Source: an uncultured delta proteobacterium
GTDB taxonomy: Bacteria > Myxococcota_A > Polyangia > Polyangiales > B10-G4
Reading direction: 5' to 3'
NCBI GenBank assembly: GCA_963727445.1
Contig: CAVSGI010000021.1
Location: 640,001 to 704,000 of the forward strand
Length of the DNA: 64,000 nt
Shown: positions 31,294 through 33,508 of the stretch, piece by piece
Layout: the number at the start of each line of letters is the position of its first letter
How positions within the stretch are numbered: position 1 is the first letter of the stretch
Notes under the pieces: generated by a model
Databases searched by the model: none
Told to the model about the DNA's origin: nothing
Seen by the model: the letters and a program-made list of their open reading frames with translations, nothing else
Made by a program: the position numbers and the translations under genes

Positions 31294-32813
31294 ATGGACG
31301 TCACGCTGGTACTCACGCACGACTGCAATCTGGGCTGTGGGTATTGCTACGCCGGCGCGAAGTTCAACAAGCGGATGAGCCCCGAGGTGGCCGAGAAGTC
31401 GCTCGACCTCGCCTTCTCCGACGACGCCGAAGAGGTGCAGATCTCCTTCTTCGGGGGCGAGCCTCTCTTGTGCTGGGATGCCCTGGTGGCGAACGCCGAG
31501 GAGGCGCGTCGCCGCGCCGCTCGCGCCGGCAAGTCGCTCAAGATGAGCGTCACCACCAACGGCACGCTCCTCACCGACGCGCGCGCGCAGAAGCTCGAAG
31601 AGCTCGGCGTCTACGTGGGCCTCTCCATCGACGGGATCCGCGAGGCGCACGACGCCGGTCGGCCGAAGATGGGCGGTGGATTCGAGCTTCGAGGACGTCG
31701 AGCGGGGGCTCGAGATCCTGGTGCGACGGGGGACTCCCTTCGAGACAATCTCGGTGGTCACCCCCAAGAACGTTCGCTGGCTCGGTGAGTCGGTGCGGTG
31801 GCTCCTCGAGAGGGGCGTGCCGCGCGTGGGGCTCAACCCCTGCTACGAGGCGCATTTCACCGACGACGATCTCCGCGCTCTACGGACAGGGGCTGGCCGA
31901 CGCCGCAGAGGCGATGACTGCCTGCTACCGAAGTGGACGGGTCGTCTCCATCACGGTCTTCGACAACAAGATCCTCGCGGCGCTCAAGGGCGGTCTGAGC
32001 GGGGGGGACAAGTGCTCCCTCGGCGCGACCAGCGTCGCCGTGGCGCCGAGCGGCAACCTCTATCCCTGCGAGCGCGCGGTTGCGGAGGACGAGGACCTCA
32101 CCTTCGTGATGGGCCACGTCGACACCGGGCCCTCCGTGAGCGGCGAAGCGTGCGCGCGCGGGCCGATCAATCCCGAGTGCGCGGACTGCGGCGAGCGCTG
32201 GCGCTGCGCCTCCTTCTGTGCCTGCGCGAACTACGCGGAGACCGGTCGCACCGATGTCGCCGGCGGCACCCAGTGCTGGCACGAGCGCCAGACCGCTCTC
32301 CTCGCCGACCGCATCGCCTCCACCCTCTGGGAGGAACAGAACGCGCTCTTCATCGCCTGGTTCTACGGCCGCATGACAGGCGCCGCCACAGAGGAGAAGG
32401 CGGAGCGGGCCCGAAGCGGAGCGGCCGCGCAGGGCGCGAAGCGCCCGGAGTGGCCGCGCAGCGCCGGGCGCGCGGAGCCGGGAGTGCGCGCCACAGAGGA
32501 GAAGGCGGAGCGGGCCCGAAGCGGAGCGGCCGCGCAGGGCGCGAAGCGCCCGGAGTGGCCGCGCAGCGCCGGGCGCGCGGAGCCGGGAGTGCGCGCCCCA
32601 GAGGAGAAGGCGGAGCGGGCCCGAAGCGGAGCGGACACACAGGGCGCGAAGCGCCCGGAGTGGCCGCGCAGCGCCGGGCGCGCGGAGCCGGGAGTGCGCG
32701 CCACAGAGGAGAAGGCGGAGCGGGCCCGAAGCGGAGCGGACGCGCAGGGCGCGCCCAACGTCGTCCCGCGCAAACCGAAATCCGAGCGCGTGCGTCTCAC
32801 GGTGTTGAGCTGA
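31294..32813 (+). CDS. Radical SAM/SPASM-domain maturase (frameshifts ~31679 and ~31873)
   Basis: CNLGCGYC, FFGGEP, TTNGTLL, SIDG; SPASM KCSLG...GNLYPC...ECADCGERWRCASFCAC..C; GGAGG SD upstream. No N-terminal RRE evident. Confidence 0.9.
32385..32753 (+). repeat. 105-bp tandem repeat (about 3.5 near-identical copies), in frame in the rSAM 3' end
   Basis: Units start at 32385, 32490, 32595 and 32700 and encode ATEEKAERARSGAAAQGAKRPEWPRSAGRAEPGVR; each full unit has the hairpin GGGCGC-GAA-GCGCCC. Confidence 0.95.
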
Positions 32814-33508
32814 TGGCTGCAGGTAAGAAGAAGCCGGTTCGCTGGACGATCCCCGACGTGAAGCAAGCGCCGCCGCGCGCGCTGGTGGCGGGCGAAGAGG
32901 CCCCCGCCTCGCGGCGCTACCCGAGCGCCGCCGAGATGATGGCGCGCGGCCCGGAGACGCAGGCGTGGCTGAAGCACGCGCTCCGCTCCATCGTTCAGCC
33001 GGCGGCCGTCGCCTCCGCCCTCGCCCTCGGCGTCACCGGTTGCTCCGACGTCGGGGAGATCCTCTCCCAGGGGACCGGCGCGCCGCCGCCGGTCTTCGGC
33101 GTGCCGGACGCCACCGACAAGCCGGCGTCACTCACACCCATCGGGGCGCCCTCTTCGCCGCAGGTCGCCCAGAACGGGGGAGGGGTCGTGATGACGCCCC
33201 TGCCGAACAAGCCCGATCCCACCGTGGTTCCTCCTTGTCCGCTCCCCCCGCTGGGTGAGCACGCCATGGCTGGGGAGCCGCCGGCGGTGACCCCGACTCC
33301 GCCACCGATCCCGCCCGCGCATCCGCCGACTGTGCGTGGACGCATCCGTCCCATTCGGCCCGCCGTTCCGACCCCACCTCCGACCCCGCCGCCAGTACCG
33401 GCGGTGGACCCACCCACACTCGACGGCGACGTGGCGATGGTGCATCCGGAGCCGCCCCCGATGCCGGGAGGGGTGAGCGTCGTGACCCCCGAAGCGGGAG
33501 GGGAGTAG
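32813..33508 (+). CDS. Pro-rich putative lipoprotein; candidate substrate of the rSAM/SPASM enzyme
   Basis: TGATG overlap with the rSAM stop; 231 aa; long N-region containing RRYP; hydrophobic stretch plus VTGC (Cys77); repeated Gly-centred motifs. Confidence 0.75.
   Translation: MAAGKKKPVRWTIPDVKQAPPRALVAGEEAPASRRYPSAAEMMARGPETQAWLKHALRSIVQPAAVASALALGVTGCSDVGEILSQGTGAPPPVFGVPDATDKPASLTPIGAPSSPQVAQNGGGVVMTPLPNKPDPTVVPPCPLPPLGEHAMAGEPPAVTPTPPPIPPAHPPTVRGRIRPIRPAVPTPPPTPPPVPAVDPPTLDGDVAMVHPEPPPMPGGVSVVTPEAGGE

Follow-up and report, generated by a model that had tools for sequence, protein, structure and literature searches.

A widespread family of radical SAM/SPASM enzymes paired with exported proteins that carry a Tyr-Pro leader and Gly-centred motifs: a candidate protein modification system

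The 64,000-nucleotide stretch of GC-rich DNA analysed here (the window; contig CAVSGI010000021.1, positions 640,001 to 704,000, assembly GCA_963727445.1 of an uncultured delta proteobacterium) encodes a radical S-adenosylmethionine (SAM) enzyme with a SPASM domain and, overlapping its end, a Pro-rich putative lipoprotein in which short motifs centred on glycine recur. Our main finding is that these two genes belong to an enzyme-substrate family that is real, widespread and apparently undescribed, with a new leader and a Gly-centred target. That the enzyme and its neighbour act as such a pair we regard as highly likely. Judged from sequence, the enzyme very probably modifies the Gly motifs before the partner is exported, and its chemistry is probably new. 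A two-component modification system, in which this pairing is combined with chemistry at the Gly Cα, has in our estimate close to an even chance of being correct. The broadest statement, that a widespread, unannotated family of radical SAM enzymes recognises a Tyr-Pro tag in signal peptides and oxidises backbone Gly at many sites of exported proteins without a Cys or aromatic partner, we put forward as somewhat less than evenly likely.

The best 80 of at least 574 candidate loci from a scan of species genomes were surveyed; further, overlapping loci were not added. By manual reading, an exported partner with a Tyr-Pro leader, Gly motifs or both adjoined the enzyme gene in 55 of them (45 curated loci and 10 that were incomplete, frameshifted or found later). 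The loci come from Myxococcota, Verrucomicrobiota including Akkermansia, Lentisphaerota, Kiritimatiellota, Planctomycetota, Acidobacteriota and Campylobacterota, and often two or three paralogous partners accompany one enzyme. A preliminary description of this DNA had asked whether a motif-bearing partner is conserved next to homologues of the enzyme, and across phyla it is, save for a small clade whose partners lack the motif. In four enzymes (L014, L015, P0105 and P0230) a hydrophobic segment and a motif tail are fused to the C terminus. Clustering of neighbouring genes disclosed no conserved third gene, the largest cluster having the look of chained shadow open reading frames (ORFs). A distant enzyme beside a different, short partner without Tyr-Pro (L158:2501-2818) marks the edge of the family.

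The association was also followed at the level of whole genomes. Among 41 relatives there were seven strong leader matches, all adjoining the enzyme. The enzyme is present in 40 of 301 genomes of the phylum, and 15 of the 18 hits of the leader model fell in enzyme-positive genomes, the other three being Tat signals without Tyr-Pro; in this test 22 candidates were scored per genome, and some of the genomes had fed the leader model. A Verrucomicrobiota-centred sample contained the enzyme in 10 of 201 genomes, gut Akkermansia species included. Ten genomes were tested from the 25 loci that lack an adjacent partner (15 loci were left out), and eight of the ten hold a partner in trans. Three of these, of Akkermansia type, encode one to four Tyr-Pro lipoproteins beside ruvB, and five, of Polyangiales type, encode one to four motif lipoproteins with Phe-, Leu- or Ile-Pro leaders. 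The latter were retrieved with a clade-specific query, which also weakly matched two enzyme-negative relatives (E 0.007-0.01); with the Tyr-Pro leader model, four orphan genomes of Polyangiales type and the genome of locus L006 yielded no partner. In the source genome of the window (9.47 Mb in 27 contigs, labelled G000), the first leader hidden Markov model (HMM), run over six-frame ORFs, found the adjacent gene only, and the A5 leader model revealed a second intact partner, unlinked to the enzyme, with a Tyr-Pro leader, a lipobox and an IAGAM motif (G000:C10:917062-917556, minus strand). This protein, also listed as L236:663-1157, contains a small helical domain like that of Polyangiales-type partners.

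The curated set of partners, again read manually, comprises 60 proteins from the 45 loci and the window protein, 61 in all. Tyr-Pro stands ahead of the hydrophobic stretch of the signal in 52 of them, mostly near residue 14; a lipobox pattern occurs in 41, and a Tat-like RRxF[LI] sequence in 12. The bodies that follow are wholly unlike one another (Pro-rich, acidic repeats, LysM, small folded domains, Cys-rich repeats), and no Pfam or NCBIfam family was detected in them beyond LysM and Tat-signal stretches. Long Cys-rich repeat lipoproteins adjoin the enzyme at L177, L179, L180, L183 and L186; they have one Gly motif per repeat loop, and tyrosines of PVKRY type in their leaders. The window partner (53 Pro, 2 Cys and 1 Tyr) has the features first ascribed to it, a length of 231 residues, RRYP at residues 34-37, the lipobox VTGC77 and a Pro-rich body. 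Comparison of the partners narrows two of these ascriptions. Within RRYP it is YP that is conserved, and RR is not; a reading of RR as a Tat motif was rejected. Likewise, a lipoprotein signal is frequent, but the remaining partners have plain or Tat-like signals or are enzyme fusions, so lipidation is not required. The suggestion that the N-terminal region serves as a leader was strengthened by the conservation of YP, by the co-occurrence in genomes and by the predicted complex described below.

For counting, the Gly motif was written as [LIVM]xG[DEGKR][VIMP], a strict pattern chosen after the data had been seen, and as a loose pattern, [LIVMT]xGx[VIMLP]. The window partner has four strict sites against 0.35 in shuffled sequences (p 2e-4 for this post hoc pattern), whereas the loose pattern alone is not significant (5 against 2.3, p 0.07). 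The 61 partners, a set chosen partly by motif, contain 159 loose sites (51 ± 7 in shuffles) and 86 strict ones (9.8 ± 3.2). A fairer test used 22 proteins picked by a leader-only model, some of them kin of training proteins; they are what remained of 29 hits after removal of two training proteins, three from enzyme-negative genomes, one from the own genome and one incomplete. In these proteins 30 strict motifs were counted, compared with 4.4 ± 2.1 and a maximum of 14 in 2000 shuffles, and 13 of the 22 have the strict and 20 the loose motif. When the central position was left free, Gly occupied it in 59 of 94 and 21 of 37 cases, six to seven times the background, with no other residue enriched. 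Positions -2, -1, +1 and +2 all vary; -2 is Leu, Ile, Val, Met or Thr, and Leu is found there in 68 of the 159 loose sites. The motif is retained whether the partner is Pro-rich, acidic, built on a folded domain or of the Cys-rich-repeat kind, in which it lies within the loop of each repeat. Motif density alone is unspecific, as 138 of 95,148 six-frame ORFs of the source genome have at least three strict motifs per 100 residues.

All six motifs originally quoted for the window partner (within AMAGEPPAV, TVRGRIRPI, TLDGDVAMV and PMPGGVSVV, and as VFGVP and PIGAP) are indeed there, but PIGAP falls outside the pattern of the family, and the L017 partner has kept neither VFGVP nor MAGEP. Their supposed regular spacing did not hold, Gly154, Gly176, Gly205 and Gly219 being unevenly spaced. 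By contrast, the view that the motif region is free of Tyr-Gly and of aromatic crosslink motifs and poor in Cys extends to the strict sites of the family, with Tyr-Gly at 0 of 116 strict sites and Cys within four residues at 2. An aromatic residue or His lies within four residues at 21 of the 116, at no fixed position, and isolated Tyr-Gly occurs in few partners, for example in L052 and those of L177 type. No Cys at all is present in 37 of 83 mature partners. The single Cys outside the lipobox of the window protein, Cys142, is as first described, but it has a counterpart in five of the seven nearest other partners.

Intact relatives of the enzyme have 360-420 residues, about 400 as a rule. A PF04055 match, a TIGR04085 stretch and a structure model (predicted local distance difference test, pLDDT, 89.6) that resembles CteB and anSME place the enzyme in the radical SAM/SPASM superfamily. 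It stays below all NCBIfam cut-offs: the best score, 180-201 bits, was to PapB (NF047865, cut-off 340), and TIGR03974 and TIGR03906 gave at most 140 and at most 126 bits (cut-offs 425 and 453). Among solved proteins CteB lies closest by sequence and fold, followed by anSME, ChlB and TigE; the best PDB match was CteB (5WGG; E 1e-47, template modelling (TM) score 0.73, 23% identity). The CxxxCxxC motif begins at residue 11, and the alignment begins at CteB residue 100, so the N-terminal RiPP (peptide made by ribosomes and modified after translation) recognition element (RRE) is missing. Database names of relatives are just 'radical SAM protein' or 'uncharacterized', apart from P0367, automatically named anSME, and the ESM Atlas returned hypothetical matches alone, all below 0.9.

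The cysteines of the SPASM domain are informative. Eight of them (C240, C258, C295, C298, C304, C308, C310 and C327 in L017 numbering) are invariant in 54 of 54 aligned sequences; of the 150 best representatives, 119 show the full pattern, and CxC is missing in a few more distant members. Cys310 is the eighth invariant Cys and lies outside the seven-Cys SPASM pattern; CteB has Ala there. A CxC provides two ligands of auxiliary cluster I (AuxI) in PqqE and SkfB, and the AuxI site of CteB is open (PMC6231123). Six enzymes (L014, L015, L055, L078, L089 and P0230) have lost at least two Cys of AuxII and kept C258 and CxC, as would be expected if AuxI, ligated by four Cys, is the cluster that cannot be spared. 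The same six have also lost the leader pocket and have fused or short-signal partners, and may be regarded as natural twitch-like variants.

How the leader might be recognized was approached with a model of the L017 enzyme (residues 1-365) with SAM, three clusters and partner residues 1-82, that is, the leader only. The complex scored 0.76, and the best of three controls 0.01; 116 of 157 solved complexes reach this mark, as do 2 of 215 mismatched pairs, a calibration that is only roughly valid with our own alignments and ligands. Runs shared at least 66% of contacts, and the partner pLDDT was at least 57. The surest predicted contacts are those of leader Tyr38 with enzyme residues 338, 341, 342, 345, 226 and 229, and the model has conserved helices at 324-346 and 350-358, after the SPASM domain. 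Asp338 is kept in 53 of 54 aligned enzymes; in 8 of 89 full-length rows, some of them duplicated, it is replaced along with Lys225, and 7 of these 8 enzymes have fused or YP-less partners. The model supports binding of the leader to the C-terminal helices near Asp338. A memory effect is conceivable, because leader complexes of distant relatives have been solved (9GM3, 5V1T).

At the window locus itself (Table 1), the ORF coordinates confirm a radical SAM/SPASM gene with CxxxCxxC that overlaps the next gene by TGATG: it starts at 31294 and its stop codon TGA occupies 32811-32813, and the partner ATG begins at 32813. Both frameshifts first noted in this gene were recovered on comparison with three intact relatives, each as a single extra base. 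The first piece of the enzyme is 88% identical to relative P0002. When 172 genes of the source genome were compared with a genome of the same genus, at least 16 showed a change of frame (0.09 per kb as a minimum), so indel errors occur frequently in this assembly; an earlier test on a sample too small, 16 genes, had given one, the enzyme itself. Two indels in the 1.1 kb of the enzyme gene exceed the genome average. In the restored, intact frame, divergence at codon positions 1, 2 and 3 is 0.15, 0.14 and 0.46, which shows purifying selection. No RNA was among the public sequencing runs listed for this organism; DNA runs with a small share of the source DNA yielded no identical-strain contig spanning either frameshift. 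We consider an assembly error the probable cause, and a recent pseudogene a clearly weaker, though appreciable, candidate; conclusions about the family were drawn from intact relatives, not from the local copy. The tail of the enzyme contains a 105-bp repeat that had been overlooked. It has 45 blastn matches on 13 contigs of the source genome, often in tandem arrays; being dispersed genome-wide and missing from the tails of relatives, it was rejected as a component of the system. Neither a sigma-70 promoter nor a plus-strand terminator was found at the locus, and there was no plasmid match.

Table 1. Coordinates of the enzyme gene, the partner gene and their elements in the window
Feature	Position	Strand	Remark
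Radical SAM/SPASM enzyme gene, without RRE	31294..32813	+	three frames in the assembly; profile matches
CxxxCxxC radical SAM cluster motif	31324..31347	+	sequence and profile evidence
First frameshift	31680..31682	+	one extra base near 31681 relative to three intact relatives
Second frameshift	31872..31874	+	one extra base near 31873 relative to three intact relatives
SPASM domain, eight Cys, CxC pair at 32217-32225	32013..32276	+	alignment
Helices specific to the family at the enzyme C terminus, with the predicted pocket for the leader Tyr; Asp338 equivalent at 32307-32309	32277..32375	+	model
105-bp x3.5 tandem repeat in disordered enzyme tail	32384..32753	+	in frame; dispersed genome repeat
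231-aa partner lipoprotein, proposed substrate	32813..33508	+	no NCBIfam/Pfam family
Tyr-Pro leader motif in long signal-peptide n-region	32918..32923	+	YP conservation
Lipobox VTGC77	33032..33043	+	pattern match only, after hydrophobic stretch
Motif MAGEP (Gly154)	33266..33280	+	strict pattern; not kept in L017 partner
Motif VRGRI (Gly176)	33332..33346	+	strict pattern; VRGRM in L017, IRGRI in L018
Motif LDGDV (Gly205)	33419..33433	+	strict pattern; LDGEV in L017, IDGDI in L016
Motif MPGGV (Gly219)	33461..33475	+	strict pattern; MPGGL in L017, MPGGI in L019

The mechanism we favour would begin in the cytoplasm, where the C-terminal helices of the enzyme, in place of an RRE, would grip the Tyr-Pro in the n-region of the partner's signal peptide. 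The hydrophobic-x-Gly-z-hydrophobic sites might then be threaded into the barrel, and the 5'-deoxyadenosyl radical could take a hydrogen from the Gly Cα, an abstraction that is favoured because Gly is the sole constant residue of the motif. A fully Cys-ligated AuxI would oxidise the Gly radical to an N-acyl imine, and the imine would be trapped by a nucleophile or water, which would give a ring or crosslink (-2 Da), or a hydroxy-Gly able to split the backbone; this is the weakest step of the scheme. Export by Sec or Tat and cleavage by signal peptidase would take off the leader and display several modified sites per protein, and a dedicated protease or transporter would be unneeded, since the general machinery removes the leader. 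A precedent for radical SAM attack and crosslinking at a Gly Cα is HghB (PMC11002830). As to the role of the product, we would guess that it presents, in multivalent form within the envelope, a site that is reactive, forms crosslinks or binds metal.

In a sister subfamily (L156:472-1482 and L157:2576-3568), proteins with a Tyr-Pro leader combine a core of sequence FGC[VI] with a folded domain that has no Pfam match, and from its sequence this could be a Gly-Cys thioether system. The two residues linked in the thiomorpholine of enteropeptin are reportedly adjacent. This ring offers a model for closure by the Cys at +1 of the FGC[VI] core (PMC12395415).

Several observations weigh against the proposal as a whole. 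An amide ring of HghB type is impossible at many sites, because Pro stands at -1 in 38 of 159 loose sites. Position +1 is frequently occupied by a residue that is no nucleophile (Val, Gly, Ala). Gly might serve only as a recognition or hinge residue. The short lipoprotein partners at L010, L028 and L029 have a Tyr leader and no Gly motif, and those at L035 scarcely carry one. Among enzyme-positive genomes, 25 of 40 lack a leader match at E<=1e-4, and no convincing partner was found in the genomes of L006 or L079. Several YP-less partners sit with enzymes that keep Asp338, and the losses of Asp338 amount to about two events in a quick tree, whose long-branch outgroups are unreliable. The docking model lays partner residues 5-26 across the mouth of the active site, which may be a placeholder artefact. 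Finally, the local enzyme gene carries its two frameshifts.

Most alternatives accept the pairing and differ in the chemistry. Epimerisation is the main rival, unlikely as we judge it: the Cα hydrogen would be lost at -2 (or +2) and Cys310 would return one from the other face, yielding D-residues, with Gly merely making room. The invariance of Cys310, Ala in CteB, would suit this, as would radical SAM epimerases in which a protein Cys is the hydrogen donor and Val or Ile is favoured (PMC8326336), and the subclade without AuxII Cys suits a redox-neutral reaction. The same subclade keeps four Cys, though, exactly one cluster's worth, and a CxC at the place of the one that includes Cys310 is a ligand pair of AuxI in PqqE and SkfB (PMC6231123); moreover, Thr, Ser, Ala and Pro are also met with at -2, and Pro is frequent at +2. 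Next comes radical attack on the aliphatic side chain at -2, with desaturation, cyclopropanation or ring closure onto the Gly two residues on, which seems to us rather unlikelier still. Leu dominates that position, TvgB and TigE act on Val and Ile in repeated TVGG and TIGS motifs (PMC9062424 and PMC10878394), and ChlB and TigE are fold neighbours of the enzyme; yet none of the 150 representatives has the GYW of cyclopropyl synthases, and five chemically different residues occupy -2.

A thioether of ranthipeptide or sactipeptide type from a partner Cys is improbable, little as the sequence kinship would suggest so: PapB, SCIFF/CteB and QhpD are the closest families, Cys142 has its counterparts in nearest partners, other partners are Cys-rich, and the FGC[VI] core of the sister subfamily could yield an enteropeptin-like ring. 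Against it stand the rarity of Cys near strict sites, the Cys-free mature partners and an AuxI that looks fully ligated, unlike that of CteB (PMC6231123). Hardly more probable is a partner that binds as activator, carrier or membrane tether, its motifs binding a third protein while the enzyme acts elsewhere. Splicease leaders work as activators (PMC11414181), motif-less partners exist, and the leader alone was modelled; this is countered by a short motif in variable copy number within otherwise unrelated bodies, by several paralogous partners per enzyme, by motif tails fused to enzymes without a leader pocket, and by the lack of a conserved third gene. The idea of an anSME-like sulfatase maturase, or another housekeeping radical SAM enzyme, next to a chance neighbour, is largely refuted and very improbable. 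anSME is the second-best structural match (TM score 0.70), and one relative bears its name, but the enzyme scores 93 bits to TIGR03942 against a cut-off of 349, the pairing is found again and again, in several phyla and also in trans, and none of the 80 loci has an adjoining sulfatase (four motif-scan matches all lay in short low-complexity frames). Clustering with anSME beside sulfatases, named in the preliminary description as the outcome that would speak against a new system, was thus not what we found.

The family shares traits with several known systems and differs from each. PapB, CteB and QhpD are, like our enzyme, radical SAM/SPASM proteins, and they act repeatedly on a ribosomal product, as proposed here, a protein in the case of QhpD; the enzyme scores below their cut-offs, has no N-terminal RRE, has eight SPASM Cys with CxC instead of an open AuxI, and, L156/L157 excepted, has partner motifs without Cys. 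anSME (PDB 4K36-4K39) resembles it in an RRE-less SPASM fold with clusters that look fully ligated and, on the proposed chemistry, in oxidising a residue of an exported protein, but the enzyme has no nearby sulfatase or Cys/Ser target motif and is predicted to use a leader. The spliceases PlpX and RhaX, with TIGR04133/TIGR04134, likewise consist of two genes, one for a radical SAM enzyme and one for a protein that is exported or bears a leader and in which X-x-Gly motifs are repeated, and type II spliceases need no separate RRE (PMC11414181). They differ in Tyr-Gly, found at none of the strict sites here; TIGR04133 is not among the 25 best families for the enzyme, the partners give no TIGR04134 match, and orthologue loci are missing from the TIGR04133 and TIGR04134 genome matches. 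TvgB/TigE (PDB 8VPO) are SPASM enzymes for short repeated aliphatic/Gly motifs without Cys or aromatic residues, but GYW ligating AuxI, the signature of cyclopropyl synthases (PMC10878394), occurs in 0 of 150 representatives, the TM score is 0.59, the motif register differs, there is no RiPP transporter, and the proposed substrates are exported proteins. ChlB (PDB 9GM3) and SuiB bind a leader without RRE, and HghB crosslinks at a Gly Cα (PMC11002830); these three need an aromatic residue or His, and the enzyme is less than 20% identical to them. The position-1 aromatic of triceptide and cyclophane formers is absent, -2 being aliphatic or Thr. No description of the system was found in the full-text literature searched, most subscription journals lying outside that search, and the supplements of Kostenko 2022 gave no match for taxon or lipoprotein terms.

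Other features of the window and the source genome may be mentioned. Directly downstream of the two genes, at 33649-39305 (+), lie a TonB gene, an ExbB-like gene, a pair of ExbD-like genes and a split ORF that resembles a TonB-dependent receptor, of which TonB alone is HMM-confirmed; genes of TonB/ExbB/ExbD type were not seen as conserved neighbours of the enzyme. Other frameshifted-looking genes, consistent with an indel-prone assembly, lie at 21461-24265, presumably a TldD/PmbA-like region, and at 28135-29605, a flavin oxidoreductase. A complete rRNA operon with two tRNAs at 51464-56967 (+) accounts for a low-GC stretch of the window. Elsewhere in the genome (G000:C20:764000-853000), about ten radical SAM-like ORFs in 90 kb possibly form a large modification or glycan cluster.

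Of the SPASM peptide maturases characterised so far, almost every one, to our knowledge, depends on Cys, on an aromatic residue or on some particular side chain. Since Gly alone is constant here, the chemistry is likely to be new, or else a known one reached by a new route. Two genes make up this minimal system, the leader is placed within an ordinary signal peptide, and a five-residue tag that occurs in unrelated protein bodies suits protein engineering. Given its presence in 40 of 301 and 10 of 201 genomes, envelope proteins may commonly carry this modification without its having been noticed. If oxidation of Gly is true, a new reactive or crosslinked residue would be displayed multivalently in the envelopes of myxobacteria, relatives of Akkermansia and members of other phyla.

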